Part shown: positions 11,201 through 52,288 of the stretch, in pieces | Numbering within the stretch: position 1 is the stretch's first letter | Layout of the letters: the number at the start of each line of letters is the position of its first letter | Assembly: GCA_051362555.1 (NCBI GenBank) | Contig: CM120641.1 | Coordinates: forward strand, 22,196,001 to 22,260,000 | Reading direction: 5' to 3' | DNA from: Lingula anatina | Taxonomy: Eukaryota > Animalia > Brachiopoda | DNA length: 64,000 nucleotides | Notes under the pieces: generated by a model | Told to the model about the DNA's origin: nothing | The model's input: only the letters and a program-made list of their open reading frames with translations | The model's database searches: none | Translations under genes and position numbers: made by a program

Positions 11201-11612
11201 CTTCATGACAGATGGATTGTCCCCTCAACCCTGTTAACCACCCTGCATCTCCTTTTTGAGTGGTCTTAAATTCCTGCATATATATAAGTTGCAGTATTCC
11301 TTAACACATTTTTTGACTGACAAAAATTGTGTCATTCTTTTACCTGAAATTTGTAAAACATTTTTGACAAACAATTTAAGGCATTGCTGCCCAGTGTATG
11401 GTTTGTACATTTAGAACAGCCACAACAGAGAAAGTAAAGTTGCCACATTATATTGCTTCCATATTTGTCAGACGTAAGCAGTTTATTCTGTTGACATGTA
11501 CATGTACTATAATATTTCAGGGAACATCTTTCCCAGGGAGTGGGTATCCTCCCCAGCCAGTTTATAACCCAGTGAGTTATTGCCATTTTTTTAATAATTT
11601 ATGGATATTCTT

Positions 11613-11643
<31 letters not shown>

Positions 11644-13002
11644 TTTACAGAGAAAGGATAAAGTTAAAGAAACCCGTATTCTTGACAGACTAGAAATGTG
11701 CAATCTTGGGTTGAACTTATTTCCGTCAAGTTCTGCCTATCACAGTGCCTGTATATATTTCAGTTAGTAATAGTTGTACTATTTCAGAGAGTACCCTACA
11801 GCCAACACATCCCAGGAGGGATGTATCCTGGCAGGATGATATTCATCAGTGGCACCCCAAACATGAACCCCTCCAGGTAGGGCAACTAGCTTTGGCATAC
11901 CTGTACAGCTTTTAAGCTTTTAACTTAAAAGTGTGAAAGTAGAGAATCATTTTATACAGTCTGCACACATCTCTGTCATGGTTCCAGTATATGTATGCCT
12001 GGGTTTCAGCAGTTTAAGAACTGTCCGAAAAAAGTTAGTAACTCTAGATAACTTTTTAAAGCACAGTAAGCTTTCTGCTATAATTGCAGTCTTGTTCTCA
12101 CAGACAAACTGATTGTTAGAAAATGTCATGTGTTTTATGGGTGTTATAATGAAGAAAATCCTGAATTCTGTTTTCATTTCCCCAGGTTTCACATCAACCT
12201 GCAGTGTGGTCAGCACAGCGGCTGTGACATAGCTTTGCACTTTGATGTCAGGTTTAGCTATGGCAGTAATTACAATGTGGTGGTGCGCAATTCCCAACAA
12301 GGTGGAGGCTGGCAAAATGAGGAACGCTCTCATCCATACTTCCCTTTTGCTGCTGGGGCTAATTTTGATGTTGTGATTTTATGTGAGCAACAATGCTTCA
12401 AGGTTATTATCACAGTTTTAATATTTTGAATTGATCTTTATGTATTTAAGGAATCTTTATGTATTAAAGGCCTTTTTTACATTGAGTGTTATATCTTGGC
12501 AACACCAGTATGTTTTAAGAGATAGGCAACTAAATAATAGCCTGGCTATTATGTAAGAAATTGAGCCTTCCCCACACTCAGAATGGCTAATTTTCTATTA
12601 ACAACATCAAGTAAAATCCTGCAGAAGTTGTGAAAGGGAGTACCAGTGATATCCCTGTAGCATAGTTATGTGGTAGAACCTCAAAACAGCTGCATTAAGA
12701 AGTTATAATACTTGATGTGAAAAGGCCTTTAAGCTTTTCCTATAGATTATTTGAGGTATATATAGAGTGTTACTAAACTGAATTGGAAAGTCTGAAAAGG
12801 AAACTATTATTTCACAATTGAAATAATCAAAATTACCAAGTTACAAATACTAGTTCGTATATATTGTAAATCTTGTTTATTTCAGGTGGCAGTAAACAAC
12901 CAGCACTTCATTGAGTTTGCTCATCGCATACAGCCACCCACACTTGCTGACACCTTGGCAATAGATGGTGATGTCAGAATCACGTCAGTCCGTGTACAGT
13001 AA
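2235..13002 (+). CDS. Tandem-repeat (two-CRD) galectin, galectin-4/8/9-like, about 357 aa, 9 coding exons
   Basis: Exons 2235-2258, 3297-3385, 4216-4420, 4712-4831, 4986-5147, 11521-11571, 11788-11876, 12186-12402, 12886-13002; all GT-AG and in phase (1074 nt). CRD1 has FHFNPRF...VVRN...WGQEER; CRD2 has LHFDVRF...VVRN...WQNEER. Pro/Gly/Tyr linker; no signal peptide, as expected for galectins. Confidence 0.95.
3762..3844. mobile_element. 83-bp PIF/Harbinger-like MITE (hairpin) in galectin intron 2
   Basis: TIR GGGAGCATTCACAAC / GTTGTGAATGCTCCC, flanked by CTA and TTA (TWA-type target site). Confidence 0.7.
6256..6800. repeat. 109-bp tandem array, about 5 near-identical copies
   Basis: Unit starts at 6256, 6365, 6474, 6583, 6692; each unit holds several TCAA(C/G)GTTGA palindromes; no unique spacers. 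Confidence 0.9.
7100..7650 (-). mobile_element. Possible orphan LTR (BEL/Pao-like) nested in the CCC element
   Basis: Ends TGATG...CATCA. On - strand it is followed by aacTGGTCCT, resembling the start of a tRNA primer-binding site. No TSD and no internal ORF. Confidence 0.3.
9231..9894 (+). mobile_element. Helentron/HINE-type element, inverted relative to its neighbours
   Basis: Reverse complement of 8745-9130 sequence; ends with (GGCATC/GCCATC)n, hairpin TGTACAGACACATCTGTGTCTGTACA and TAAAAA. Confidence 0.8.
10033..11195 (-). mobile_element. Helentron/HINE-type element (near full length)
   Basis: 5' end ACAAGGCAGCAAAGCTGTCAAATGTACAGAC on - strand from 11195, three 161-bp-type units, GC-rich microsatellite remnant and partial terminal hairpin near 10033-10050. 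Confidence 0.8.
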
Positions 13003-19209: not shown

Positions 19210-22200
19210 TTACAGATAAGAGACTTCACTTTTGGGGGCCACCACTGGGGCACCTGGTTCGTCTTCAGGGGCTGAACTGGTGGGTTCCTCTCTCAATGTC
19301 TGGTAATGCTTGCTGTCATGCTCAAACAGAGCATTGTCAAATTCCAGCGTCTATTGAAAACAAAATATACATTTAGACTCTTTCTCCAAAGTTGAAAGTA
19401 AGTATCTTTTACTTGCTGTTCTGGTATGGGAATATGTGTCAGAAATTGCCACTGATTTTTGCTGGAACAAGTAGAGGCTGAAAACTAAATGACCCATGAC
19501 CCTTCACAGGTTCTGGCTGTTTATCATGCAGTTAAACTCGGCAATATGCACATTAACCTAAGGTCCAGTATAATTTAAGTAAAGCTCCCAACACTGTAAA
19601 TAAATGTTTTTTTCCTTCATAATTGAAATATTCATGAACACAAGCAATTGACCACCATTTCTCCATTTCATGTGGCAGTGAATGCCTCACAATAATGCAA
19701 AAGACAATTTAGTATTTTCTCGAAGGTAAAATGTGAAGAAAGAAAAGAAATGAGAAAGGGTAGCATGTACCTGGTCATAGCCAGAATCACTGGGAGCAAT
19801 GGAGTCCTTGTCCAACTTTTCCTTAGTTCTTTGTCTTTTTTGCTGATACATCTAAAAATAATAATTCAAGATATTTATAAATATACTCAATAACCATAAA
19901 TTACACTTTTTAAAATCACAAATAAAACTGAAAACATGTAAACTCCAAATTATGTTATTTTTAATTTTCTACTGTAGTTAGTATCTTCTGTGAATTGGTA
20001 TGCATATAAATATTTATTTCTCAAATTTAAAAATAATTGAGATTTCTGAAGTCTCAATAAAAAGGAAAATGTATTTTTTAAAACTTACACAGAATCCTAC
20101 TACTGAACCCACTAGAGCAAAAACCACACAGACCACCACTGGAATCACCATTTTTATCATCTTTCCCCCATCTGCTCCTTTAGTAGACATTGCTATCTTT
20201 GTTCTACCTGGAGCTCTATACTCCATCTGAGCTGACATGGAACCTGGTGCTGCCATGAGCTGATGGTTGTCAAAATTCAAATAGAAATCACCACTGGATA
20301 TCTGCAATTGTACAGTGTAGTTGGTAAACTTTTATTACCATGCATTTGTTGCAAAAAGCATATGGAACACACTTGAATTGAAAAATGAAAAAAAAAATTA
20401 AAAAAAGTTAAATGGCAATATAGTAGTCAAAAGTGATATTACCTTTCCACGCAAGTAATAGGAAATGGCTGACATGTCAGAAGAACCATCTTGCAACACA
20501 GTGAGTTGGACATGTAACAATTTACTGTTTGGCTTGACTGAGATCTGGAGAGAAAATTTTACATTTGGAATAAAAATATAATTAAATGATAATTAGATGG
20601 CTACAAAATTATGCTTGTATTAAGAGAGGAAATTTCACATTTGGAATAAAAATATCACTGAATGATAAAAACATGAAGATAGCTACAAATTGTGCTAATA
20701 TTCATACTTTTTTAGAAACTATCAGGGTCAGTAGATAACGACACACTGACTGTTAATATTGTACTTACTGTGAGGTCTTTTATTTGTTCATTTTTAAGGT
20801 CCAAATCATGCATCAAAAACCCCCTCAAAGCACTAGAAGGTAAAATACAACGTTATTCATGAAATGTCTTTATCAATAAGCTGTCTTTCATTTGCTATTA
20901 TGTAAAAGAAACCTTTGCTAATTCTTTAAGTTTATTGTAGCTCAGGTTCATGTGTTCTTACATCTGATGAACTCATAATGCTTATAATAACTAGGTCATA
21001 TTAGGATTTTGACCCAGGACACGATGCTGTTTATACACAATAATGTGCTTTGGTGGAAAAATTGACTGATTGATTGATTGACAACTCTTGAAATTGAAAA
21101 GTTGACCCTGTTTAAACTTCAGTGTGCCCCCAGTTTCCACACATGTTGTGCTTCAAATCTTTCTTCCGTTTCACCTAGATTACTCTTTACTTGCATGTTT
21201 GTTTGAAGATGGTTGAAATGACAAATTTTGACAGTGTAAGTACATTGGCATAAGTACATGCCAGGGAATCAGTTGTGTTTTGTCAGACAATTGCTGATCA
21301 AGATTTGGTTTCCTGAGCAAAAAAAAAAAAAAAAATTGTTGCAAAATGCACAATTGTTAATGTTGAGCCCTGAGTAACAATTTCTTTTTCTTTTATTTTG
21401 CAAAACTACATATAAATTTATTTCTTTCTTGTGGCCCTGGTGCTTATCAAAATTCATTTCCACAAATACCTGGTCAGCCCTGTGATGGAGGCTGATGTCA
21501 TGCCTGGTGATGCTTGAAGTTCAAACTGAATACGAACAGCAATACTTTTCCTCATCATGCCACACTTCTTGCCATGAGATATTTTCTTCCCCTCTTCATT
21601 AACACACCAACACTTTTTATTATTGCACTGAGTGACCTTGAATGTTCCCCTCTTTGTGCAAGCAAGTAGCTGAACCCTTCCACCAACAAGAGCAGTCATC
21701 ACTGCTACTGCACGTTGTCTCTGACACACTGGGTAGACTGAACAAGAGAGAAAGATGATTAATACAGAAAGAGAAAGGATGAAATTTTAATAATAATTAC
21801 ATATTTATTTAATAAAAATATATTTATCTAAAAACATGTTCTGTAGACTTTTCAAATAAAATACAATACAAATGGAATATAAAGTTAAAAGGATTAATAA
21901 TTGTTAAAAGAATGTTAATATTAGAGATAAGGAACTTTGTTATCAATAACCATAACTAGACTGAAATATGCCATGTTTGAATCTTACATCAGAAAAAAAT
22001 CATTGAAATTCAATATCACACTTGGGGCCTAACAATTGTGGTTTAACATGGCAATGTGCTTTTGGAACTCCAGTTTTGATAGATTATCTGAACAATTAAC
22101 ATATTTGTGTGATGCTTTAAATGAATCATATGTTGATGCTGACATCAGATATGAAGGGAAAAGTATTTTAAATGTAAGAAAAATTTGTTATTGATTATTT

Positions 22201-25200
22201 TTGACTGATGATGTAACCCTACTGAAATATAATATTAAATTTAATAAAACAATCTAAGCATACTTTTGTTGCACTGAATTTCCATTCTGGTGACAATGTC
22301 ATAGTATTTAGGTTGACAAGTCTGTGGGTCAGGAAGACATATGGCCTCTGGATACTTGTCACATGTCACGTTCATACAAACATTATATGGACAGGCCTTA
22401 AGAGGCACTTCTAAAAAAGACAACAAAATAAACTTTATTGTGCATGTGTGTTACATTGTACTCAACAAATTTTTGCAGAATAGTTGCATTGGGTTCTCAT
22501 AATTCAAAATGGAAATATTACTCAAGGTGAAGTTTTTTTTAAGGAGAGAGAGATGAAAACAATTTTAAAAAGAATGAAAATAATTTTTCTATGAGATCAT
22601 TATGCAATAATACTGAATATTACCTGACTGTCCCTGGTCTTGCAAATCATATGCTGAAAATTTTAACATGAACATATTATCACTTAAGAAAAAATCATTT
22701 TGAAAGATATTAACATTTATTTAAAATTGTAAGGCAGATAATAGAGACACTATCAAAACCAGGAAATGTGTCATTGTGAACATATCTAAATAAAGTTTTG
22801 TTTACTAATGAACTGCTTGTTATTATGTAATTATTATGAAAATAAATTGCCAACATGAAAGGGATGTCAACTCTTCATTTTGCTTGGAAAAGTGCCATAA
22901 AATGGATTTTCCTGGGGTAATTGACAATTTTCCCAAACTTTCCAATGGTCAGTGATTCTGTTCTGACATTTAAAGTTAGTCAATGTTTTTTTTAAGTATG
23001 GGTTTTGTACTAATTTAATTTCTTATGAGATGAGGGTCCAGGTGGTCTGATGGCAAGTGCAAAATTCAGAATAACTGTGATATATATATGCAGCTTTGGT
23101 GGTTAAATGATATGAGATATATTTCTAAGTGTTGTTTACAATGTTAGTAATTATTGTGGAATTTTGAATCTCATATGAAACCATAAGTACCTTTACAGTC
23201 CACATGTTTTAACTGTGGTCCTTTCTCCTCCCCATCCTCTACCATCTCCTTTTCTCCATCATCATCATCATCCTTTCCCCATTCCTTTTCTCTATCATCA
23301 GCAACATCCTCTCCAAACTCCTTTTCTCCACCATCGTCCTTTCCCCATTCCTTTTCTCCATCATCAGCAACATCCTCTCCCAACTCCTTTTCTCCATCAT
23401 CCTCCCCGACCTCCTTTTCTCCATTCTCATTTTCACCTTGATCATCTTCTCCACCATCCCCCTCCCAATCTGTTGTCCATCCCTTTGCCATCATTTGTAC
23501 CATCTCTTCATCCTCCATATATCCACTGCCACCAACATTCCTTCCTGTATCAATATTGTCAGCCATTTCGTCAAGTGTCATCCTCTTTAAAGTCTTTATT
23601 TGCATTATATGGTGTTTTAATTCTTTCATCCAGACGCTCTGTGAACTTGCCTGTGCACTAGACACATTTACAAAATGCCTGAAACTAAAATAAAGACTTA
23701 TTAAAGACTTAATATTCAAACTTTGTTTTATAACTTCTTTGCAGCATGAAATTGATTGTTGTTGCAACGGCAACAGGGACATGCAGCCATGACGCGAACA
23801 GACAGACCAATCAGAATATATACAGACACTAAGTGTCTGTATATAAAAACATGATTTTACCAGCTCTTTCCCTGCCTTTTCTGTACTGTTTTGGTAGTTA
23901 TTTTATTTTTGTTTTAAATTTATATAACTTCCTGAGATGCAAGAAATAATCACAATTTGCACCTCTGTATTCATAAATGTGCAATAAGACACCAAAATGA
24001 AGAATGTAGTTTGATTTGAATCTCTATGAATGTATTTCTATTTTACATAACACCTTGGATTATGAATAGAGCTCAATGTCCAGAAAGTAGCCACTGGCAA
24101 GAAAAGCCAATCTAAGTTGACCTTTCTTACCCCAAATAATGATGAGATTCTTTCTTTTACTCACTGGGAATAACATAGCGTGGTTTGAACATCAGGCCCT
24201 TGGGAATGGCAACTGGACTACTTTTTTTTTTTTTTTGATAACAGTAATGTGCTAGGATGTAGTTAGTTATCCTACTGTATTTTTCCAACAGGAAATACAT
24301 TCATTAGTACAAAGTATATCTCTCAACTTCTGGCTGTTTTTCTATTTTCCCTAACAAACTGGCAACCATACTGAAAAATGCTCATCTCAGTAGTAACAAC
24401 CAAGCTAATTTTACTCTCTCTACCCATAAGGAATGCATTTCTGTAAAAAAAAGTTTACAAAAAAGAACTTTGCAGGGTTAGTGTTTTGGCAACTCACCAT
24501 ATTCCCATATTTCCTTTGGTTATTGATATATTTCACAATTAATTTTGAAGAATTATGACAAGGGTGCAGTGTGACAAACCATATGTTTATGCAAATGCGT
24601 TCATTGCCCCCAAAATTTGGCAATTTCAAGTTAAAATGTGATCTGCCATAAGATGAAGACTTAGCCTTTATGATTTATGAGAAGTAAGCAATAATAAAAG
24701 TAGACTTTGTAATTGCCAGACCAAATCCAAGGCACCTCCAGTACAATATACCAGTGAATGAAAACATCAAATGTTCAATTTAAATTGTAGCATAGTTTAT
24801 CATACATACCTAGATGAACAAACAAGAGATGACCTCTTGTCCACAAAGAATGAGATTTTGCAGTTGTCACAAGGATCGGCAAAACACAGTGCCGCAGGGT
24901 AATTTGGGCATGATGCATCCACACAACTGTTGGAACAAATTGCAGGTATACGTCCATTTTTACACTCTAATGAAGAAATAAGAGTTACTAATTGCACACT
25001 GTATAATGCAATAACTGTCGCAGTTTTTTATTCAAGTGATACATGTCAACTACAAAATTAAACAACTCTGATAACCATCAAAATAATTTATATAAAGAGA
25101 ACCATTTTCAGAAAAAACAAAAGTTCAATATGCAAAATGAACTTACTGTACAGAGGGTCGCTTTCATATGCTACCCTGTCACCTGAAATATTTATAATAA

Positions 25201-28200
25201 TTACAGCATGCATGTGGGCATTTAAATTCTACCACTTTTTGTATATGATCAACATCAATTTAATTTGTAGATATTTGTATAAAACATCACAAACTAGATA
25301 CAAGTGTTACCATTTGAGAATATTTGCAAAGAGATAGTTCATGAATTTTAATTGCCTTCAAGCTCCAAATTAACAATTCACATTTTTGAAATCATTACTT
25401 ATTCTATCTTTTTGGCATAATTAAATCAAGAGCAAACTTTTCTTTTAGCAGGAATAAAAATAGAGCAATGCAAAATCCTGTTTAGAACAGAATTTTCAGG
25501 TTTAAGAATCATTTTTCATGGTAACATGCTAATGTTATAGAGGTTGGTTTCTGGAAAAATCTGTAACACAAGATGTACAAGATTAACCTGATATGAATGT
25601 AATTCTCACCACTAGCATCACATTCCAAGTGACCAGTAGTTAAAGTGCCTTGTGTCGGCCTTCCCTCTTTGTTCACACACCAGCACCAAACACCAGAACA
25701 CTGCTTATTGTCAAAGCTGCCCTCAGCATTGCACACTCTGAAGCCAGAAGCTGGTATCAAATCTGAAAAAGTATTACAGGAACATATATTTACAAGTCCT
25801 ATTCTTAAATATACAAAGCAAGAGTTAATGCCTTGTAATGTATCAAGATATATACAGATTATTACTGCCAGTTTTCTTACACCCCCCCCCTCCAAAAAAA
25901 AAAAATGCACCTGTCAAAAACAAACCAAAACTAGAGGATCAGAAAGGCAATACTGCCTCTGGGTATTGTACCACCAGCTGGAGTAAACGCATTCTTTTGG
26001 AAAACCAAAAAAGGGACACCACCTTCAGTGTCCTGCTTGACAATTAAGCTCTACAAATTCAAGTTCATTTTTTTTTTTTTTTTGAAATATATGATTTAAT
26101 TCCTATTTAAGTTCCAAAGTAACTAAGGAATGTGTTTGGCTGTATAGTTTAAACTCCAAAACTTTGACTCCCACTCCAGCACCAGGAGCAGATTAAGAAG
26201 ATGGGTATATGTATCAGGAGCGGATTTAGGCCGTCTTCTGGGTCTTCCGGAAGACGGTCAGATTTTCAAGTTTACATTGAAAGTTGTCTAATTTTTACGT
26301 TGGAAGACGGTCAAAAATGAAGAATAGATCAACAAAGATAATTTGGAAGACTGTCAGAAAATATCTCTGAATCCGCCCCTGCGTATAGTCACTGAGGTCA
26401 TTCAGAACAAGTTGATCCACTGACTAACAGATAAGCAGACTTAATATGGCCGACTCACGTAAAAGCAGTGCAGACTAACCACCTGATGGCATCCCCGCGG
26501 CCTAATCCCCTGATAGCATCCCCACCTCCACACGCACCATCAATGCACAGGCCCTGCAATTAAACCTCCAGCTGAGATTGAACGGTTTAATGGCGCGTGT
26601 GGAGCGAGGTGGTGAGACCATCATCGGACTAAGCTTCACTGTTTTTAAGTGGGGCCGGCCATATTTAGTCAGTGGATCAGTTAGTCCACAGATCAGAATT
26701 TGCTCACTGTGTCTGTACAAATAAATTGAATATTCTGAAAATAAGCACTTTAAGTAATGCATTTCCTATTCTGTGAAAAAAGGATACCAGTCTTTGTTTT
26801 GGGCTTGGGTTGCTTCACAAAATGCAATTAAAGAGGCTGAAAGTGGACTTCATTTGCAACATCATAATGGAATGCATATATCTGGTTTCTAAAAATTAGC
26901 GGAAACAATTTTTAGTCAAATATACGACACTTTATCCTACCTTTACCAGTAACTGAATGAGTAGGCATAAACATTGTAATGATATGTTTTGCAAGAAACA
27001 TCCTTGCCACATTCGAAGCTCCAAGGGTGAAACCTGTCATCTGCTGATTAAACCACGTAGACAGAGCAGTTTGACTGAATACTCTATTGGCTGCAAAATA
27101 AATTGAAAGACCCATGCAGTTTTATGTTAACGTGAGGTCTAATTCTGGTCTTGCATTAAGGTATCGGTATTCAATCATATGCTGATAACAACCAACTTAA
27201 TCAATTAAAATTTCTGATTACTATGTATCACAACCAATATGAGTGTAATTAATAAAACGTTGATTTCTGATTGGTTTATTTGTTACAAAATAGATAAATA
27301 GAGGGTAAAGGCTTCAAAAGAAATTTATCATATTAATCTTTTTAAAAATTACTGGTTGAAATATTTAATATTTGCATGACATGTATCATGTCTGAGATGT
27401 ATAGCAACATACTATTATTCAACAAAGGAGACAACAAAACCTTGGACCAGGTCTCATTGATATTTGCTAGTTGATCTGAAATTTTCTTAAATAGAAGAAA
27501 CCTCTCCATGGTAGTAAGTGGCGCTTGGTCTGGATTGCAAACTGATAGGGGTGGTCTGTCAGTATCTTCTGACTGTGGGACATCTGCCTTAAAAGAAGAA
27601 CCTTCAAATGCTGGTGGTGCAAGAGAAAATCTGGTTGGCAAACGTCTAGTAAATCTGGGGCCATCCAATACAGGTTGTCTACTTATTCCTGGATCCACAG
27701 TAACCCTATCCATTGGTGGGCGTCTACTCGGTGGTTGTCTACTCACTCCTGGGTGAACAGTTACCCTATCCATTGATGGGCCTCTATTTAGTGGTTGTCT
27801 ACTCACTCCTGGGTCCACTGTAACCCTGTCCATTGATGGGCGTCTACTTAGTGGTTGTCTACTCACTCCTGGGTCCACTGTAACCCTGTCCATTGATGGG
27901 CGTCTACTTAGTGGTTGTCTACTCACTCTTGGGTTCACAGTAACTCTATCCATTGGTGGGCGTCTACTCACTCTGGGGTCCACAGTTACCTTATCCATTG
28001 GTGGGTGTCTACTCATTCCTGGGTTCACAGTTACCCTATCCATTGGTGGGCGTCTATTCACCCCATCTGTTTGGGGGTGTCTGTTCCCCACCTGATCTTC
28101 CCTACATTTCCCTAAGAATGATGAAAAAAAGAAATGTACACAAGCATAGAGAAAATATATACATCTGTGATTGATTTCAAAAGTAACTAAGTGATCTCTT

Positions 28201-31200
28201 AATCACATGGTATAGTGATATTATTATATAATCATCCTGTCCTGTGCATCAGTTGGGGGAAGACAAGGCTAGTCCCTCCGTTTTTACAAAAATTGAGGTG
28301 GAAGAAGCACATTTCCATAGGCTGGCAGATTTTTTCTGAAGGAAGTTCATTTATATACATGAACCTAAATTGTGGTATAAAAATCAAAAGTTGGCTGTAA
28401 TTATTTTCAGAGTAAATTTAATTATAAAGCTTCTAATTCAAGTGTGCGAACTTGCACCACTATCCTTTCACTTTCAAGATAAAGCCGATGTGCGGACTTG
28501 CCCTGGGCGCACACTAGCCCTCCCCTTTCCCCTACCATATGTTCTAATGATACAAATAGTCCAAGTTTATTATTTAAATTTGGTCCTTCAATAGAACAGA
28601 TATCAACTTAATTCTGAATAATTTCTTTAAATTAAAAATGTCACCTCTGTTCTTCCCTATATTGTTGCTCCCCAAAGGGCCAAATTTGGGTCTATTGGTG
28701 TTCTAATTAGCCATCCCAGCACTATGGTGCCCCCACACTAGAGCTGGTGGCAAGTATGCTGTCCAAAACAAAAATCCCATTGTCATAGACTCCCCATATA
28801 TTCATCTACTTTTTTATTCTATTCTCTATGTTTTTCTCATTTTCTATAAAACTTTGATTCCCTTTAACATATTTTTTTTAACTCAGCCACGGTGCCAAAA
28901 GCACATGCTTTATAGTATGTTTTTATATATATCTGTCCCTGTACTTTCCCTAGGAAAATTATGATCATATTAATCAATTGTCTTTGGTGGGCCAACGTGA
29001 AAATTCCATTAAAGTCGCAATTTTTCACTAGCATTGGAATAGCTATTATTCCTGCAAAGTAACCTAGACAGCAAGGTGTTAATTGTCAGGCTGATGTTGA
29101 GTCCGATTTATTTATATTCTCTTTCAAGAAAAATCTAACAAAGTATAACAAGTTATATTAAAATAAAAATAAAAAGACATATTGTAATAGGCCATATGCA
29201 GCTGGAAGCAACTTCTGGTAGTTATATGATTTAATTTAAGATTGGTGTCTCTAATTTATTTATTATTTTGAACCTTAAATGCATCTCTTTTTATTAGCCT
29301 GTTTTGTCATCAAGTTTTTCTATGCTATGGTGCTCTAAGCCTCATTGTTTTGCTTGTATATTTGTTTTATGATAACACATGGGAATCAATGCTCCTCTCT
29401 ATGCCACCTTCCAGGGTATTTGTAGTAAACTTCCGTTTAAGTTTGCTTTGTTGCAGTAATATATAGGGGTAGTAGCATTTTGATTGTAAATATTTATTCA
29501 AGGTGTTGTAACAAAATTTAAAAATAAATCAAAATATGTCAAGAAATATTTCCAAGTAATTTAACTGATGTTTTTGATAAATCAGTGAAATGTTTTGCCT
29601 TCATAGACTACTTTATTAAAAACATATAAAGTAACTCATCCATGATGTTCTATTTGTTGAAGCAATATGTTGAATTAATATCCAATTATAAGCAGAAATA
29701 TTAAGAACATGTTAAATATCCATGTGTGGACTGATTAAACCAAAGCAGTAACCAATCTAATAGCTCTCTTTTACTACAAGAGGAAATTGTACTAACCCAC
29801 AATCGGCTCTGGGTGGGTGAGAGTAATAGATAGCTGGGAGGTTACACAGGATTTACAGACAATTCACTGAATTTTTCCTAGTATGTAAAAGGCATTTTGC
29901 TAAAAAAAAGCTATAAATGGCCTTCAAATATTGGGAGATGAAACACTGTTTACAAATTACCCTGGCTGAATTTACATTGACCTTTACATGTACTCTGTGT
30001 TTATCGATTATAATTACAATGCAACCATCAAAGTAAAATCAGACACCTTGTCATTTTTCATAATTTGTGATGGTTCCCTTGAGCTTTTACCTGCGAGATT
30101 ACCCATGCCAAATATCAGATGTAGGGCAACCAGCCTAGATATCACTTTCATCTTCTCTTGGGAAGTGTGACTATTCAGTACGTCAAGCATTTTCTTCCCA
30201 CATGTGCTAAAACCTTTAAATATGAAAAAAAAAACAAACAAATCATCATCCCACGATGGTAATTAAATCAATCTAATTTTATAGTGATTTGATAAATTCA
30301 AAATGAAATTTTATATAATTATTAGCCATATATTGCAACTACTACTGTTAAGATATCTTTTAAAAACATGATCATACATGTACATCTAAAGAGTCATGTT
30401 TCCAAAAACACATTATGCTTTACAAAAGTACTTGTTTGAAGTAAAAATCAATTCAGTGTAAATGTATTTAAAATACAACAGAGATTTACCTTTGAAACAA
30501 TCATATTCAGTTTTCATATGATTCTTAATATATTCTCTTTTGCACCCTCCACATGGGTTAACATGGCAATTTGTACCTGTTGCTGGGCACATTGTCATTG
30601 TGCATGTCAAGAAGTTACAACGGTGTGTGTTTTGGTCATTTGGACAGACTGAATACGAATGAAATACTTGATAAAGTTGTGGAATTGTGCTCTATTGACT
30701 CCATGCTTGATCAGAATAAAACTTTTCAGAACACCAAATCTTTTGAAAAAAAAATAATAAAGATCTAGCAACATTTGCATTTGAATCTATACTGAAGTAT
30801 CATAAAATTTAGAACAAACAGAAGAAATTTTGTGATATATAATATTTTAAAATTTTACAAGTCTTGTTTGACTACCATATAAAACAGTGTTACAGTTTTC
30901 CTTAAAAATATAACTACAAGTAAGTACATAGCAAGCACTTTGCAATATGCTTCTGCCCATTAATCTAACAAGACATATATAACCTGTGATGAATGAGTTT
31001 ATATACATGTAGTTAAGGTAAAAAAAAACCTGTCAGATTTCCCACTCATTACCTGGATCAACTGGTTCTGGTTTTTCTATAATAAACAAATTAAATGAAA
31101 AATAAATATGAATATTCTTATCACCTTATAATGTGATTACTAGAATGCAGTTACGCGTGACAAGCAGTTATGCTAACACTGCTGGTTAAAACAATGTCAG

Positions 31201-34200
31201 AGTTATGTTAAAAATTACCATTACTTTAAACCTAATCTGCATTCTTCTACAGTTTGACAATAAACTCATAGAAAAACAATAAGTGATGCTTTGTGGGAGA
31301 TGGTATTCATATGGATAAAGAACTAATATGCACAAGTGATATGTTGAGGTTATATTGCTCAATGAAACACCTTAGAAGTGTAGCCTAAATTGTCTGGGCC
31401 CTGTACTTACATGTATGTATACATTATGAATATGAATAATTTTTCCTGTTTGAAAAGTTACAAATATTACTAATACCTGAGCAGGATGTGCCACGTTTCT
31501 GTGATCCAGCTATAGGTGTCCCCTGGGGTGTGGCACACCAGCAGATCCCCAGGGAGTCCACACACTGTCGCCGGTACCACTTGTCATGACCACGACAACT
31601 GGGGTAGACAATGAAGAAAAAAATTTGTTGCATATTGTTTAAGATCAAACTGCCCTTTTTACCCAGATTTACTGTAAACTAAAATGGCAAATATTTTTCC
31701 ACAGAAATATAAGCTTTAACAAAATTTTGGCCCATTTGACATCGAAATATAGGTCAAAGGTTAAAACTAATGTTATATAATAAATATCCACATGACTTTT
31801 GGTCAGACTTCTATAGTAACTTTTCCCGTAACTCCTTAGTTTAGTAGACATTTAGCATTTAATTTTCAAAATATATTGAAAATACAAAAAAGCATAACTT
31901 TTGGAAAAATGGTCCTATCAAGCTGATTTTCCAACTTTGACCTGTATTTAAGTAACATTGATTACTCCTGTAAGTTTCAAAACAATAAGCCTGTCAGTGT
32001 TCTTTGTACTGTGTCATCTGTATCACATATGAAAAAAAAAAACAAAAAAAAAATTGGTGTAGCTTTGGGGAAAATGGTCCAATCAAACAGATTATCAAAC
32101 TTAACGGCCTGTACTTTATGAAAGTTTGTCAGTTCTATAAATTTGAAGAAGAAAGGTAAAACTGTTTTCCACAATGTGTCTGCACATGAAAAAAGCATAA
32201 AAAAAAAAAATTGGATCTGGATTTTGGATTTGGATTTTTTTGAAAAATGGCCAGATCAAACTGATTTTCAAACTCTGCCTGTAATATTCATCACTTCTGT
32301 TAGTTTGAAGGCAAAAGGTTAAAGGGATAATAACTCTTCGTATGAGATCTATATTTCACAATAAAAACATTATGAACAACTCATAGAAATATAACATATT
32401 CTATTGTACCACAAAAACGGCAGTTATAGCTTTTATTCTGATATCTGAGCTTGACTTTAGACCATGTGACTTCCATTGATGGCTGTTCTCTGTTATAATC
32501 TCTTAAGAGATAAAAAAAAAAAACTTTTTAGAAAAAAAACAGGGACTAACTTTGAATGTAAAAATGGATTCATTAACCATTGGTAAGTATGGGAAAATAG
32601 TTGTTTACTCCAGGAAAATTCTTTTTTTTTTTTTTTTGGGCCAAAACGAAGAGTTATTATCCCTTTAAGCATTTTTTTACTCATTATGTTATTTCTGAAA
32701 GTACAGAGTGACAATGGCAACAACAACACTGATGACAGACACATGTGATGGTTATACATACAATGTATGATATGGGCTCGTGACAGAAAAAATTAGCAAG
32801 AAATGGAAGCTGTGCATAAGTGCTATAGGGTGATGCCACCGATTTTCTTAAAACCACTCGATCCATTTAGATTTCATCACTAATAATTTAATTTTAAACT
32901 TTTCAATGTACTTTTATTAACAAAACAGTCAAGCAGTTTAAAAGATTTAATAAGCAATGGAAATCACTTGTTTTGGAACAGAGTATTTATGAAACAGAAA
33001 TTAAACAAAAATCTTTAGAACTATGAACAATCTTATTGATTAAGACCCCATTCCCAGAGATTAGATCGATTCAACTCCCTGGGGGTTCACGCTAAATAGC
33101 TGTCAGCCGAGCGACAGCCACGAAAGTTAATTACCCCCTTACAGCTTGTAGTAGGCGGGACGAACATTTAAGCTGGATTATCTGACAGTAATCTAGTGAG
33201 ACTCCCAACGGGGATAGATCGATCTAAAATCTATGGGAATGTGTCCTAAGTTTAGATGTTTTCAAAGATCAGTGGCACCTGATTATTCCTGACACCTTCA
33301 TCAATAGCTACACCAATATTTGTGCTTTTATCCACCAATTTGGAACTGACTCCTTCCTGTGTCTACATCCAATAAGGATTATGAGGTGTGATCAAAATAA
33401 TGCTGCCAGCTACTTGAACAGGAAAAAAAATGGCACCTTTGTGCAATGACAGCCTTATACATGTTATCGATATGTTGAACAGCAAAGATCCTTAGGGCAT
33501 GCCAGATATGATAGCTAAACTGATACATAAATAAAGAAATAAAAGAAATAACTTAAATTAGGTCCCATAATAATGTATTTCAGGATTACATGTATTATCT
33601 TAAGTGTTTCTATATTTGACTTGTATTTCAACCAGCCAGTTAATTTTCCAAGCATTATATTTGTTTTTCCTGATATATAAGGGGTGTGTGGGGTTGGTGG
33701 GGGGAGGGGGTGACAACCTTTTGCATGCTCAAATGTACCAATCAAAATAAATCTGGTAAACCAGCTATGCCAGGCACATAGGTAACATACCCAGCTGGCA
33801 AATTATGTTGTTTTAACGTTGAAACAAAGTTGAACCATAACGTTTATAACATGTTGGATAAATGTTGGATCAACATCAGATATAACAACATTGTATCAAC
33901 CCCAGTTGTTAGACAACATTCTTGCATGAAAAGACATCAAAATGACCTGAAATGTTTTTATTTTTGGTACAAAACACCGGTGTAACATGAAAATCTGACT
34001 CCCATGAAAATGTGACTCCCCAGTCAGATTTTCATTATGAAAATGTGACTCCCCAGTCAGATTTTCATAATGAAAATCTGACTCCCCCCATGAAAATTTG
34101 ACTCCCCCTCCACAAAACTTCATACATCTTATTTTATTTGAGTATATGACTGTGATCTTGTAGTATGTAAAATGGAAGATATGTTGGCACATTTTTTGTA

Positions 34201-37200
34201 GTTTGCAGTGAAAATTCAAATGAAAAAATAAGAAAAATAAAAATGTGCACATAATGAAAATCTGACTCCCCCATGAAAATTTGACTCCCCCATCATAAAA
34301 CTTCATAAGTCTTATTTTATTTTGGGTATATGACTGTGATCTTGTAGTAAGTAAAATAGTTGATACATTGGCACATTTTTTGTAGTTTGCAGTGAAAATT
34401 TGAATGAAAAAATAAGAAAATTAAAAATGTGCACATAATGAAAATCTGACTCCTCCATGAAAATTTGACTCCCCCTCCACAAAACTTCATAAATCTTATT
34501 TTATTTTGAGTATGTGACTGTGATCTTGTAGTATGTAAAATGGTTGATACATTGGCACATTTTTTGTAGTTTGCAGTGAAAATTTTAATGAAAAAATGAG
34601 AAAATTAAAAATGTGCACATAATGAAAATCTGACTCCCCCATGAAAATATGACTGCCCCTCCACAAAACTTCATGAATCTTATTTTATTTTGAGTATATG
34701 ACTGTGATCTTGTAGAATGTAAAAAGGAGGATAGATTGGCACATTTTTTGTAGTTTGCTGGTGAAAAATTATGTGAAAAAGTAAGAAAATTAAAAATGAG
34801 CAAATAATGAAAATCTGACTCCCCCATGAAAATATGACTGCCCCTCCACAAAACTTCATAAATCTTATTTTATTTTGAGTATGTGACTGTGATCTTGTAG
34901 TATGTGAAATGGAGGATACATTGGCGCTTTTTTGTAATTTGCAGGTGAAAATTTTCATGAAAAAATAAGAAAATAAAAAATGTCCACTTAATCGCCTATT
35001 GTCTCCCCTATGAAAAAGTTATTTAATATTTGATCATCATTTCAACACCTTTTCTTTTAGGATACTTTATGAAAAATATATTGGAAATATTTAAAGGTTT
35101 GATGATAAAATAGTGAAAGCATGAAAAAGAATTCATGAAAATCTTTATTTTTACACCTATGAGATTTGGACTCCAATGGAGAAAAGGACCCATTTTATAT
35201 TCAGTCACCATACCACTGTTTTCCACATAGTTTGCATAGAGATGGATATTTTGTCATTATTTGAAAGTTTGATGATGAAAATTTTGGTCAATATTTTTAA
35301 AACAAGTATCCATCTTTATTCTTGTAGGTTTTGCACTCCCATGTCAAAACACTACATTTTTAACACAAGAAATTGGCCCCATCGCCTTTTTATTTAATTC
35401 TTCTTATATAGCATACCCAACAAAACACTTGCTTTTGTTTTCCCATTATTTTCCCCAAAGCTGGATGAAAGATGGGGGTTAAAAATTTTTATTTTCATAT
35501 AGCTTAGTGTGCAGAGTTATCATTATATATACAATGAAAAGTATGTGGAAAATAGTGATATAATGACTGAATAAAAAATAATTGTCCTTTTCATGGGTGT
35601 AAAATAAATATTATACTGAATTTCTCACTATTTTTAAATTTCAAACACTTATTGCAAAAATTTTTACCCACAAAATTTAAATATTCCACATATGTTCTCC
35701 ATAAGAAAACTAAAAAGTAGAAACATTTAAATGTGTGCTAAATATGAAATAAGTGCTTTTAACTAGGGGTGTCAAAATCCCACTGGTACAAGAATGCAAA
35801 TTTATTATCCATTTTTCATTTATTTTCACGCAGTATTTTACCATAAAACTTTTTAACATTTCCAATACATTTTTCATAAAGTATCATAAAAGAAAAGTTG
35901 TCAGAATGATCATCAAACATCAAATAAATAGCTTTTTATAGGGGAGCCATTGGGTGTTAGAAAACAAATCCTTAATTTTTCTTATTTTCATGTGTTTTAT
36001 TACTTTTTTCTCTCAATTTTTTAACCATGTGCACATTTTCAATTTTCTTATTTTTTCATTAAAATTTTCACTGCAAACTACAAAAAATGTGCCAATGTAT
36101 CAACCATTTTACATGCTACAGGATCACAGTCATATACTCAAAATAAAATAAGATTTATGAAGTTTTGTGGCGGGGGAGTCAAATTTTCATGGGGGAGTCA
36201 GATTTTCATTATGTGCACATTTTTAATTTTCTCAATTTTTTATTAATATTTTCACTGCAAACTACAAAAAATGTGCCAATGTATCAACCATTTTACATAA
36301 TACAAGATCACAGTCATATACTCAAAATAAAATAAGATTTATGAAGTTTTGTGGAGGGGGAGTCAAATTTTCATGGGGGAGTCCGATTTTCATTATGTGC
36401 ACATTTTCAATTTTCTTATTTGTTCATTAAAATTCTCACTGCAAACTACAAAAAATGTGCCAATGTATCAACCATTTTACATACTACAAGATCACAGTCA
36501 TATACTAAATTAATTAGAGATTAATGAATGTTTTTATGTAGGGGAGTCAAATTTTCATAGGGGAACCACATTTTCATTATGTGCACATTTTTAATTTTTC
36601 TTTTTTTATGAAAATTTTCACCTGCAAACTACAAAAAAGTGCCAATGTATCATCCATTATGCATACTACAAAATCATAGTCATTTACTCAAATAAAATGA
36701 GATTAATGAATGTTTTTTTGGGGGGGGGGAGTTAAAATTTCATAGGGGGAGTCACATTTTCATTATGAAAATCTGACTGGGGAGTCACATTTTCATAATG
36801 AAAATCTGACTGGGGAGTCACATTTTAGGGGAGTCAGATTTTCATGGTACACCGGTACACAATTATAACGTACACTGTAAAAACATTCAAGTACATGGTT
36901 TGTCTGATTTTTTCAACGCATTTAGCTCCTAAGCATGTTTTGCACTAAAACATGGTACACCCCTTTAGCCTGGATGTGTTTAGCAGTAGGACATGCTTGA
37001 TGGCTAAATATATGTAGGGTATATGTGTATGGCCTTTAAGTTAGGATTTCCAATGTTTAGTTTTATATATATGTATATAACAAAGTAACAGTCACCTCCA
37101 CCCGTCTATCTATAACAGGGTACCGAGAACTGTCAATTTTGTTAACTTCACTCCATCACATTTATAGCAACTTATTCATCCTAGCATTAGCTGATCTTGC

Positions 37201-40172
37201 AAGGAAGTTTATTGGAATGTATTTCTGAATAACAAGTTAAGAAAATTCACTAGTTCACTAAAGACACAAAACAACTGTCACTTTTACTTTAAAACACTTT
37301 TTTTATTATTTTGATAAAGTTAGTTACAGTATTGATAAACAAAGTATCATGTTTTCAATAATTAATATTTTAAATTACAATCCATGTTTTCCATCACGAC
37401 GACCAAACAACAATGTTGAGTCAATGAAATGACCAAAATACAATGTTGAGTCAACGTCACATTATGACAGTGTTTTGGCATGGCTGGATCAATGCTGATT
37501 TTACGTTGAATTTAGGTAGATCAACGGCAATTCAACGTATCAACCTGTTTTCAACGTTGATCCAACGTCACTATGCCTGCTGGAATAAAAGCTAGGCTAT
37601 TTTTAAAGTTGTCAATCAGATGTCAATTGTCAGAAAGCACAAAACACTTAACTGCTCAATAAAAACACTGGGGATGCACTTTATGGTGGTAAACTTTACA
37701 TTCTGTGGTTTAAGTCAATGACATGCATGTTTTTAAAACAAATTTGGTTTAGTCAAATCAATATCTTATACCAATAATGTTGCATAATTCTTATCATAAT
37801 ATGGAAGAGATGAAAATTTGAATATATTTTTAATTTGAAACTAAATACTTATTAATATACTTATTAAAATACTGCACCCATACTGTTTTTCTTTCTTCTA
37901 GATCTATTTTATTCATTTAAACAAACTCTCATCATAATAAACATTTATGCATAATAAAAAATTGACTTTTTACAGGCATAAGGGTTAATTAACCATCACA
38001 AAATGTGTTTTACTAGTATTTCAATACCAAAACTTAACTTACCTAGGCATATGGATAATGGCATCTGGCTTGAAGAAGAGGGCCATAGCTGCTTGGAACA
38101 TTGCCTGTTTACAGCTACCTACAATATCCGTATGTAGCAAGAAGTTTAATATACTGTACATGCAGATACATGTACCGGGTACATTTAAAAGTAGACACTA
38201 ATTCTTGAGATAGAAATAATCAAAAACAGTCTACAGTGCAACTATGTATCAGTGATACATTTGTGACCTTCCTTGTATTACCACAACCCCTCAGTTTATC
38301 TAATAATGAAAAAGAAAGAACTCTCGATCATTCTCTCTGAAAATCCCTCCATCCCTCCCTCCTTTATATGCATGCTGATCACCCTCTTACTCACACAGAC
38401 TTTATCACTCACACACATGGCCTATACAATTAATATATTAATTACCATTTATCTGAAGGCGACCATTTTTGAACAAAAGAGCTGAATCATCCAGAATTTC
38501 CTGCTCTGTATCATCTGCTAAAGTCACATTGATACCTTTCTTTTCAATGTCTTCCCCTAAAATATTTAAATAATTTATAAAAGACTTTATTTGCACTTTG
38601 AAACGGCACTGCATGTCACATAGTATTCAATATTGGAAGGGTATTATGCATGTTGTGTAGGGTTTCAGCAGACATTAAAAGAAGAATACAAGCCATAGAG
38701 ATGAGATGAGACTACTCTACATCCAAAGATATCATGTCACAAATGAGGAAGTAAGGAGCAGAATCAGACAAACCAGTGGACCATACGAGGACCTATTGAC
38801 CACTGTATAGAGTCACAAGCTGAAGTGGTAGATGCACATCCCAAGACCAAAAGGACTTGCCAAAATGAACTAAATATGGCAGACCTACATGAAAGGAAGA
38901 TCGCTTAATCCTGTAATGGTCTTTCCGCCTCTCACACGCCTACCCTTCAGGGGCACAATAATTAAGTCTCGGCTCAATTCAACTGGTCGAGATTCTACGT
39001 GTGGGGAGGCATGTCAGAGGCAGAGAGACCATTACAGGATTAAGCGGTCTTCCTTTCATGTAGGTTTGTCATATTTAGGTCGCAGCCTAGCTAGCACTCG
39101 GCTCTTCTCGATCTGAATGGTCCCTATGTATGTAACAATAATACCCAGTATATTGTTTGACCACAGCCTTTTTGTAAACCAAAAAAAATATTGTAATAGT
39201 AAAAATACAATTTACTCATACCTCAGTGTTGTAGACATGTATTATAAAAAATATATATTGATTCAAAACTAAAGTAAAATTACATTAAACTTTGAACCAA
39301 AAGAATTACAAGGCAGCAAAGCTGTCAAATGTACAAACAAAATGCAAAAAATAATGATGCACAAAATAGATTATTTAGTCAAACTTGAAGAATAAACATA
39401 ATGTTTAACGGCAAAAACAACATCAAGTTTTAATTATGCACAACAGGTATAACACAGACTTTAAGAATAATATTTTGTAACTGGCTTAATTAAGGCTTCA
39501 GCCAATGACAGTTCAAATTCTCCATATGTTAAAAATTAACATGGAGGCACTATGTGTCTGTAAATAAAAAGTACCAGTATATGTGGAACATTTTAAAGGG
39601 GTAACAACTGTTCGTAAGATATCCATATTTCACAATAAATACATTGTAAAAACTCATAGAAATTCTATTTTACCACCAAAATGGTGGTTAATGCAATTAT
39701 TCTGGTATTTGCGCTTGCCATCACATCACGTGACCTCCATAGATGGCTACACTCTGTAATAATCTCTAAAGAGAATATTACAAAAGAACACTTTTTAGAA
39801 AAAAAAAAAAACAGGTTCTAACTTTGGATGTCAGAATGGATTCATTAACCATTGGTAAGTATGGGATAATTGTCCTTTACCACCGGAAAATTCATTTTTT
39901 GACCAAAATGAACAGTTGTTATCCTTTTAAGCAAATAATGATTAAAATTCTTGTAAGGCTGTTGGTTACAGGTAGAAGTAATCACCCCACTACATCTGAG
40001 AATTTCAAACAAAATTTTGATAGTGCCCCTACACTAAATTAAATTAAATATTAAGGGATCTATGACACATACATGTATCCCAACAGATTTCCGCAGAGTA
40101 TTTATGCCTACCTGAAGTGACTATGGATACTGCAGTAACCATGAGGGCAACTGCTGAGACACACTGTAACAT
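19210..40172 (-). CDS. Type-I membrane protein with 3 thyroglobulin type-1 domains, 3 Cys-rich modules and a C-terminal EpCAM/Trop2-like module; about 1067 aa, 17 coding exons
   Basis: Exons 40172-40112 (signal peptide MLQCVSAVALMVTAVSIVTSG), 38118-38043, 31598-31477, 30648-30490, 30213-30091, 28111-27413, 27090-26941, 25762-25610, 24966-24810, 23678-23191, 22410-22264, 21737-21470, 20832-20769, 20544-20443, 20301-20089 (TM MVIPVVVCVVFALVGSVVGFC), 19851-19771, 19350-19210. All GT-AG and phase-consistent, 3204 nt. TY signatures QC...CWCA and two QC...CWCV. Confidence 0.85.
26215..26381. mobile_element. hAT-like MITE; a diverged inverted copy lies at about 44138-44300
   Basis: TIR CAGGAGCGGATTTAG vs CAGGGGCGGATTCAG; TSD not recognisable. 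Confidence 0.6.
26423..26680. mobile_element. MITE with long imperfect inverted repeats
   Basis: tgatccactgactaa...atatggccgactcac vs gtggggccggccatatttagtcagtggatca; shares a CTAAATATGGC-type motif with the 38869 hairpin. Confidence 0.6.
27670..28060 (-). repeat. Coding minisatellite: 45-bp and 60-bp units encoding SRRPPMDRVTVDPGV / SRQPLSRRPSMDRVTVDPGV
   Basis: Seven MD(R/K)VTV(D/N/H)P repeats in ORF 27342-28091, within exon 28111-27413. Confidence 0.9.
32323..32664. mobile_element. Kolobok-like MITE
   Basis: TTAA TSDs; perfect 19-bp TIR AGGGATAATAACTCTTCGT / ACGAAGAGTTATTATCCCT; inserted into a decayed HINE-like repeat. Confidence 0.9.
33043..33246. mobile_element. PIF/Harbinger-like MITE
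   Basis: Inverted ends AGACCCCATTCCCAGAGATTAGATCGAT / ATCGATCTAAAATCTATGGGAATGTGTCC, flanked by TTA/TAA; related to 48952-49205. Confidence 0.65.
33790..37584. mobile_element. Second CCC-terminal CMC/EnSpm-like element, hosting a foldback insertion
   Basis: ta-CCCAGCTGGCA at left, TGCCTGCTGGA at right, AACGTT-rich subterminal motifs at both ends as in 6232-8426. Confidence 0.65.
33977..36855. mobile_element. 2.9-kb foldback DNA transposon with about 1.1-kb modular TIRs made of 184-bp tandem units
   Basis: Ends CCGGTGTAACATGAAAATCTGACTCCC / GGGAGTCAGATTTTCATGGTACACCGG. Left-arm units at 34067, 34251, 34435, 34619, 34804; about four inverted units at 36025-36760; AT-rich spacer about 35140-35810 with no ORF. 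Confidence 0.9.
38869..39080. mobile_element. MITE-like hairpin with about 72-bp inverted arms
   Basis: ctaaatatggcagacctacatgaaaggaagatcgcttaatcctgtaatggtct... pairs with ...agaccattacaggattaagcggtcttcctttcatgtaggtttgtcatatttag. Confidence 0.8.
39308..39570 (+). mobile_element. Short internally deleted HINE-type copy
   Basis: Starts ACAAGGCAGCAAAGCTGTCAAATGTAC, ends tgtgtctgtaaataaaaa. Confidence 0.65.
39597..39926. mobile_element. Kolobok-like MITE, same family as 32323-32664
   Basis: TTAA TSDs; TIR AGGGGTAACAACTGTTCGT / ATGAACAGTTGTTATCCTT; shared internal aatggattcattaaccattggtaagtatggga. Confidence 0.85.
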
Positions 40173-50676: not shown

Positions 50677-52227
50677 TCACAGACACTTATCTCTACATTC
50701 CTGGACAGTTTTGAAGTTGTTTCCTCGATAAGGGGTCATGCTGCACCCACTGTAGATAAAGGCTTGGCAACTAAGAGTGTCCCGGTTCCTGACTGGTCCA
50801 ATGGTCCCCTGGACTACCCCATAGCGTATCATGTAGTGGTCTGTACAGTTCCGTGGTCCAACATGAATCTCCATGTCGCAATCTGAAAAAAAACAGAGTA
50901 TCAATATTAATCGAATTGCTAATTCAAACCAAGAAATTAGATAGAGAATTAGAACATTTTTTGTTTAAACATTACACTAAAGATAAGATCTCTTCTACTA
51001 GTTCTTAAAATGAATTGTTCAATCATGAATAATTATGTCTTGTTACCATTATTGCATCTTTAATTTGCCCTATAGTTGACTTAGATTTCAAAATACACAT
51101 TTTCAAATAAAAATGTCTACTTCAGATATTTTATTTTCATGTCAATTTTAGATGCTGTTCACTGACTTATAGATTACAAACCCTAGCTTAAATTTATATA
51201 CTATAATCCGTAATCCGGTTGAAACTAAAAACTGCACATTTGTGCTAAATGCTGACAGTTGGGTATTGTTTCCTTACCTGTGTGCTCCCCTGACATCTGA
51301 CAGTAATCTAGTTTCCTTACCTGTGTGTTCATCTGACAGTAATCTACTGTTTCCTTACCTGTGTGCTCACCTGACATCTGACAGTAATCTATTCTTTCCT
51401 TACCTGTGTGTTCACCTGACAGTTGGGTATTTTTTCCTTACCTGCATGTTCACATGACATCTGACAGTCATCCTTTGTTTCAAAATGGTTGTCTCCTTTA
51501 GAGCAGCCACCCCAGGTAAACATCTCACACATGCAAGTCTGGGGGTTGTAAAAGTAACGAGGGTGCGACTCTCGGCATGTGCCATAATTCACAGGTGTGC
51601 GGCAGGCGCTGTTAGCCATGTTGAGATACTTGCAGCTGGACGTCACAAGAGATCCATCATGGTTAGAGTTATCGACTGAAAAAAAATCATAGTGACATTT
51701 GAATTTTGTCAGTGAGACACGCATCTTTTAAGAAATACAATTGCATGTATTACTTCAACAAGATATACACCCAAAACTACCATGTATTAATATGCATGTC
51801 CTTATAACCCATGCAGCACTCAGTAGCCCTGTTGGATTTTCTTCTCCTTTATCCTATATTAAGTTACATTCTTATATAATTTAACAATGTCACAAATCAA
51901 AATGTAAATTGCAAATTTTTATTTCATATGGACAATTTTACCAGAACACAAAGTGAGCAATTACATCCTGTTATACAAACAAAAAGATGTTACAGGACAT
52001 AAAGTACTTTTCAACATATGTATAATATTTGATAACCTTTAAGAGAAAGTACAAGAGTTTAACAGATGTTGAATCCAAGTTCATCATAATGCTACAGTCA
52101 ATATGAAGCATATTCATGAAATGCCATTTAGTTGATAGGTAGCTGTTTTTTTATAACCTACATTTCATCTGGCATAGCTTGTTGATGTCATTGTAGCATC
52201 ATATTGAGTCATGTCTGGCTTGTCTAT

Positions 52228-52288
<61 letters not shown>

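Follow-up and report, generated by a model that had tools for sequence, protein, structure and literature searches.

The human tumour marker EpCAM (TACSTD1; PDB 4MZV and 6I07) and Trop2 (TACSTD2; PDB 7PEE, 7E5M and 7E5N) are the described proteins closest to the one discussed here. Both consist of a six-Cys module, a thyroglobulin type-1A (TY-1A) domain, a Cys-free SEA-type domain, one membrane helix and a tail, and one paper states that invertebrates have no TROP genes. The window analysed here, 64,000 nucleotides (nt) of the brachiopod Lingula anatina (GCA_051362555.1, contig CM120641.1, positions 22,196,001 to 22,260,000), holds on its minus strand a 21-exon gene that runs from 40172 to 19210 and encodes 1136 amino acids (aa). 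We estimate a probability of roughly 0.72 that its C-terminal third, comprising a Cys module, a TY domain, a predicted SEA-type domain, a helix and a tail, shares an ancestral gene with the vertebrate EpCAM and Trop2. What makes such homology likely is the agreement in intron positions, in domain order and lengths and in the register of two adjacent tyrosines, to which a Foldseek ranking and synteny each add weakly.

The exon limits of human EPCAM were derived from variant names in PMC6328345 and PMC9679307. The splice positions are c.184, c.425/426, c.491/492, c.555/556, c.657 and c.858/859 (PMC6328345, PMC9679307), and the derived exons measure 241, 66, 64, 102 and 201 nt with phases 1, 2, 2, 0, 0 and 0. 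From the TY start to the helix end, the brachiopod exons measure 268, 64, 102 and 213 nt, and all five introns match those of EPCAM in phase (1, 2, 0, 0, 0) and place. Five of the six EPCAM introns over this span thus recur, while the missing one sits just after the TY domain. Exon 16 spans EPCAM exons 3 and 4, exons 17 and 18 equal EPCAM exons 5 and 6 in size (64 and 102 nt) and phases, and exon 19 (213 nt) corresponds to EPCAM exon 7 (201 nt). Two EPCAM features do not appear among the variant names used and are assumed here: the phase at which exon 2 begins and the intron separating exons 8 and 9. The EpCAM tail is encoded by exons 8 and 9 (PMC7349879), and the brachiopod tail likewise comes from two exons. 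The initial annotation had given EPCAM exons of 64 nt (phase 2-0), 102 nt and 201 nt and the lack of one EPCAM intron after the TY domain in the brachiopod gene; the limits drawn from the papers agree with the former and confirm the latter (one of six absent).

These matches were set against simple null models that consider one gene, whereas a scan inspects many: five matching phases have a p of 0.007 (with assumed phase frequencies), two adjacent in-phase exons that deviate by at most 6 nt from the sizes 64 and 102 have a p of 0.0006–0.002, and the exact sizes 64 and 102 have a p of 2e-5 to 7e-5. The 15 introns upstream of exon 16 are of phase 1 in 13 cases and of phase 2 in two, so the run of 2, 0, 0, 0 is atypical for this gene.

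The whole protein is laid out as a signal peptide, TY1, Cys module 1, TY2, Cys module 2, an acidic repeat stalk, Cys module 3, TY3, a Cys-free domain, a helix and a tail. Its only hydropathy peaks are at residues 1–19 (signal peptide) and 1044–1062 (membrane helix, the main peak), and with one helix and a 73-aa cytoplasmic tail it has the features of a type I membrane protein. Pfam recognises the TY domain alone, three times, plus two sub-threshold matches. TY3 belongs to PF00086 with an E of 1e-9 to 5.5e-9 (Cys 852, 874, 885, 890, 892 and 906). Directly before it, in the position of the EpCAM N-domain, Cys module 3 has six Cys with a spacing of 4, 4, 7, 6 and 14, from which the N-domain of EpCAM, bonded I-IV, II-VI and III-V, presumably differs; the module has no Pfam family and no EpCAM match, and the structural model there has a predicted local distance difference test (pLDDT) score of 25–33. 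The 6–8-Cys module occurs in three copies (22264–22410, 24810–24966 and 30490–30648) as an unnamed domain, which belongs to no Pfam family and for which no PDB entry scored below E 0.1.

The C-domain that follows TY3 is devoid of Cys from 907 to 1049, and the last TY Cys precedes the helix by 138 residues versus 131 in EpCAM. The sole GS in it is followed by Met-Ser-Ala, unlike the three hydrophobic residues in the MUC1-type self-cleavage motif. EpCAM also is without this motif (PMC7349879). Other juxtamembrane SEA proteins (MUC1, MUC16, TMPRSS6 and related proteases, dystroglycan and IA-2) differ from the brachiopod protein, whose domain has neither the GS-hydrophobic motif nor a Pfam SEA match and is preceded by a TY domain.

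A register test used single EpCAM residues named in papers (PMC7349879, PMC6328345, PMC9679307, PMC12211971 and PMC7072682). With the offset preset by the introns, 3 of the 17 residues are identical (Ala165, Tyr214 and Tyr215), and this offset ranks 11 of 1080. EpCAM Tyr214-Tyr215 aligns with Tyr987-Tyr988, and the brachiopod protein has two YY pairs in all. The other 14 residues differ; since Ile193 and Gln197 of EpCAM are placed opposite Lys and Val, the 102-nt exon probably contains gaps that offset each other. The exon after it has 4 of 12 residues identical (Gln239, Leu240, Pro244 and Gly245) at an offset picked afterwards. None of the five residues of TLIYY (EpCAM 247–251) is identical at the offset aligning Pro244-Gly245, and Asp253 is also unmatched.

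The AlphaFold models were built without an alignment and are poor. Residues 910–1030 may adopt a ferredoxin- or SEA-like fold, predicted at low confidence. Foldseek against 350,542 PDB chains, run with a poor model of pLDDT 37, put Trop2 or EpCAM at ranks 1–6 and 8 over 130–255 columns (best E 0.007), and no other SEA or TY entry was among the matches listed to rank 50. The C-domain match by VIA-align begins at Trop2 149 and EpCAM 140, which are their C-domain starts. A wide fold search had neither protein among the best 50 matches listed, which excludes nothing.

Several results weigh against common descent with EpCAM. In the phmmer comparison of residues 800–1042 with the PDB, thyroglobulin (E 8e-18) and then saxiphilin (2e-4) come on top, and Trop2 and EpCAM match over about 27 residues around CWCV with an E of 0.2–4. 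The single-sequence phmmer and Pfam searches gave no match outside the TY domain at E up to 10, and single exons had no PDB match. The initial claim that the sequence matches the vertebrate gene was thus overstated, as these searches reach the TY domain alone and EpCAM is outscored there. The TY loop from Cys I to Cys II has 21 residues versus 32 in EpCAM and 34 in Trop2, the loop lengths and domain limits of the latter two being drawn from PMC8508679 and PMC7349879. VIA-align did not place EpCAM above other SEA folds; as to whether the fold is that of a generic SEA domain or of the EpCAM C-domain, one of the points on which the initial annotation would have turned, Foldseek favours EpCAM/Trop2 but VIA-align does not, both on a poor model. 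Finally, no other invertebrate relative was found by searches that needed exact shared words or used one short exon.

These last blanks weigh little because of the way the searches worked. The TY exon compared with longer proteins gave none among 46 candidates at E 0.001, residues 870–1045 compared with shorter proteins none among 144 at E 10, and pattern matches in metagenome contigs none among 44. The membrane exon compared with 1.84 billion representatives had four matches and no relative among them; all four are repetitive proteins and were judged unrelated by eye. An atlas comparison yielded TY clusters only and, for the Cys module, a rotifer lead of 0.77. Literature searches, judged by their listings, gave no report of an invertebrate EpCAM homologue, though Pei and Grishin 2017, which reportedly defined the EpCAM SEA domain, may name some.

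The contrary results bear on two other explanations of the likeness. One is convergence, by which a generic juxtamembrane SEA or ferredoxin-like domain came to stand after a TY domain, while the agreement in introns and sizes arose by chance among many genes. SEA domains commonly sit beside membrane helices (PMC7349879), and the confinement of significant sequence matches to the TY domain and the indifference of VIA-align are as convergence predicts. However, the phase, size and tyrosine-register matches occur together, and the Foldseek matches listed to rank 50 include no other SEA or TY entry, so convergence appears quite improbable.

The other is that the SEA domain and the helix alone are common with EpCAM, as an old SEA subtype with these introns in several invertebrate receptors, whereas the TY and Cys modules were attached independently, perhaps in a tethered cysteine-protease inhibitor. 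Cathepsin-inhibiting TY domains are short-loop ones (PMC7349879), and the brachiopod TY domain is nearer to those of thyroglobulin and saxiphilin than to that of EpCAM. Of the five matching introns, four are located within or past the C-domain. The remaining one, of phase 1 before the TY domain and with the first TY Cys 4 codons past it in both genes, recurs with the same Cys spacing at the internal Cys/TY junction of the brachiopod gene. Domain shuffling, however, usually leaves an intron at the boundary, and there is none between TY3 and the C-domain, while TY1 and TY2 end at phase-1 introns. Moreover, the order of Cys module, TY, SEA and helix must then arise twice, and the neighbouring genes fit the linkage group of EPCAM. 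We hold this partial kinship to be unlikely.

With its three TY domains the protein also resembles the multi-TY proteins or thyropins (thyroglobulin, saxiphilin and the p41 invariant chain), among which are its best PDB sequence matches. Those matches cover the TY domain alone, and none reaches the Cys modules or the C-domain. The TY3 loop is shorter than that of EpCAM, and inhibition of cathepsins by it is putative.

Descent of the C-terminal third and EpCAM/Trop2 from one gene is hence the reading we retain. The protein is likely a homologue of variant design. We do not count it as a strict EpCAM/Trop2 family member, since a long TY loop, TLIYY and profile similarity were looked for and not found. 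The initial description as a true homologue of EpCAM therefore stands as likely for the introns, the domain order and the tyrosine register, but not for strict membership. EpCAM has 314 aa versus 1136 in the brachiopod protein, which carries two more Cys/TY units and repeat spacers. It has no profile match in the N- or C-domain region, a 73-aa tail and, in the TY3 loop, Gly-Gly-Arg with one basic residue in place of a dibasic protease site.

If the two are homologous, the Cys-TY-SEA-helix unit would date back to the last ancestor that protostomes and deuterostomes shared, and the origin of the EpCAM design would shift to the bilaterian ancestor. The old features would be the TY-SEA-helix unit, the tyrosine pair and the introns, and the vertebrate additions may be the long dimerising TY loop, the dibasic site and TLIYY. 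With moderate confidence we suggest that a Cys-TY-SEA-membrane receptor with the same introns and linkage group stood at the epithelial junctions of the first bilaterians, and that it is compact in vertebrates and long and repeat-extended in the brachiopod. The initial proposal, by which EpCAM is the trimmed remnant of an ancestral long form, is doubtful, as one species cannot polarise the direction. Lengthening in the brachiopod line explains the N-terminal extension as well, because the extension has recent tandem repeats (60 nt × 4.9 with 89% matches, 45 nt × 3.2 and 36 nt × 4.9) as well as a Cys/TY unit that is repeated and whose introns are mostly of phase 1. The N-terminal 800 residues may thus have been gained within this lineage rather than inherited from the ancestor.

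By analogy with EpCAM, which dimerises in cis by its TY loop and C-domain, binds claudins and is cleaved in a regulated way, the three outer domains would pack into one membrane-proximal unit on the epithelial surface. The helix GxxxG at 1057–1061, a common motif, may pair with a second copy or with a four-pass junction protein, as AxxxG is presumed to pair with claudins (PMC7696911). Cleavage in the TY loop (Gly-Gly-Arg, 866–868) or near the membrane might regulate turnover. The tail has a YxxL motif at 1106 and a C-terminal S-x-L end, which would control sorting and scaffolding. With two further Cys/TY units and both repeat and acidic spacers, the N-terminal 800 residues would let the protein reach well out from the surface. 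The comparison gives a direct test of the ancestral job, whether chaperoning of junction proteins, protease control or adhesion, and is a case of intron positions exposing a kinship that profile searches miss.

The gene model itself (Table 1) has GT-AG ends at all 20 introns, an open frame and one final stop. The seven terminal exons named initially were all found at AG/GT sites with the sizes and phases given (1-1, 1-2, 2-0, 0-0, 0-0 and 0-0 before the last), and the RefSeq model agrees. The 21-exon product is identical to XP_013408570.1 (Lingula anatina, 1136 aa) at 1120 of 1136 residues with the same junctions, and the seven-exon product equals its last 337 residues at 333 positions. Judged by this identity, XP_013408570.1 (LOC106172413) is the window gene or an allele of it; it is named 'uncharacterized protein', and the names shown carry no EpCAM link. 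A profile of the three Cys-rich modules matched one of seven candidates, the partial Lingula anatina record LOC106166852, whose cluster also contains the full-length XP_013408570.1. This second annotation, placed on a contig of 25 kb, comprises residues 1–225 and is likely an allele or haplotype copy of the same gene.

Table 1. Exons of the Lingula anatina gene and the protein parts they encode (window coordinates).
Exons	Encoded part	Residues	Position	Strand	Evidence
1	Start codon and signal peptide	1-21	40112..40172	-	Hydropathy peak 1-19
2-4 (38556-38446, 38118-38043, 31598-31477)	Leader and TY1	21-124	31477..38556	-	Pfam
5-6 (31076-31053, 30648-30490)	Linker and Cys-rich module 1	124-185	30490..31076	-	
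7-10 (30213-30091, 28111-27413, 27090-26941, 25762-25610)	TY2 and large insert	185-560	25610..30213	-	
11-14 (25182-25147, 24966-24810, 23684-23191, 22653-22624)	Cys-rich module 2 and acidic repeat stalk	560-799	22624..25182	-	
15 (147 nt, phase 1-1)	Cys-rich module 3, six Cys	799-848	22264..22410	-	
16 (268 nt, phase 1-2)	TY3 (six Cys, CWCV) and predicted C-domain strand 1	848-937	21470..21737	-	
17 (64 nt, phase 2-0)	Predicted C-domain helix and strand 2	937-958	20769..20832	-	
18 (102 nt, phase 0-0)	Predicted C-domain strand 3 and Tyr987-Tyr988	959-992	20443..20544	-	
19 (213 nt, phase 0-0)	C-domain end, stalk, membrane helix with GxxxG	993-1063	20089..20301	-	
20-21 (19851-19771, 81 nt, phase 0-0; 19350-19210, 141 nt including stop)	73-aa cytoplasmic tail		19210..19851	-	

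RNA was checked by mapping eight of the nine listed raw runs of the same species. The junctions of the C-terminal module are not listed in any of the eight, where a depth of 0–1.1 is too thin for a test, and the depth is 0 in all eight over two bins spanning 20486–21047, where the 64-nt exon and the greater part of the 102-nt exon lie. Upstream, the junction 26941/25762 has 4 reads in each of two runs (X3 and X2). The missing junctions could point to an error in the exon model or to different splicing, either of which would leave the comparison with EPCAM without a basis. The coverage, however, is too low for any test, and the 20 GT-AG introns, the 1136 open codons and the identical RefSeq model make such an error very improbable. 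Support for the 64- and 102-nt exons comes from their splice signals, from the open frame and from RefSeq.

Two neighbouring genes bear on linkage. A two-domain, tandem-repeat galectin with a Gly/Pro linker (about 4190–13000, plus strand) lies downstream, tail to tail with the brachiopod gene, and its best PDB matches are galectin-9, -7, -8 and -4. Upstream, at about 56000–63400 on the minus strand, are exons of NOP53; three fragments of them resemble Pfam Nop53 with scores under its curated cut-off. In human, NOP53 is at 19q13.33 (PMC6896177) and EPCAM at 2p21 (PMC7072682), and paralogues of SIX, OTX and MEIS tie together 2p21-14, 14q22-23 or 15q14, and 19q13 (PMC2211742). The ancestral tandem galectin has been assigned to scallop chromosome 3, which corresponds to parts of human 1, 2, 11, 14 and partly 19 (PMC10343441). 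We infer that 2p21 itself falls within this group. The neighbours thus fit the ancestral linkage group of EPCAM, a weak support because there are two genes only and galectins are on three scallop chromosomes.

Directly upstream, at 50679–54201 on the minus strand, is a separate secreted gene with a signal peptide and four Kunitz domains. Its four Kunitz exons (50.7–53.5 kb) were considered as part of the brachiopod gene and rejected, as they come with a start, a signal peptide and a stop of their own, and the start of the RefSeq protein is at 40172. Vertebrate EpCAM is protected from matriptase by the Kunitz inhibitor HAI-2, and genes with Kunitz domains are common.

Within the gene, TY2 seems to contain an insert of about 300 residues with Pro/Arg-rich tandem repeats of 60 and 45 nt. 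The insert seems to split the domain between its likely first Cys, presumed to be Cys189, and the remainder. It would lie in the loop joining the first Cys to the second, which is longer in EpCAM as well. Within intron 3, at 33986–36826, a 184-nt unit forms two arrays that face each other, one of 5.0 and one of 4.0 copies. The intronic repeats at 26213–26381, 25880–25995 and 22866–22941 gather hundreds of RNA reads from other loci, and the first of them shows RNA joints to the opposite strand, as expected of a small inverted-repeat element.

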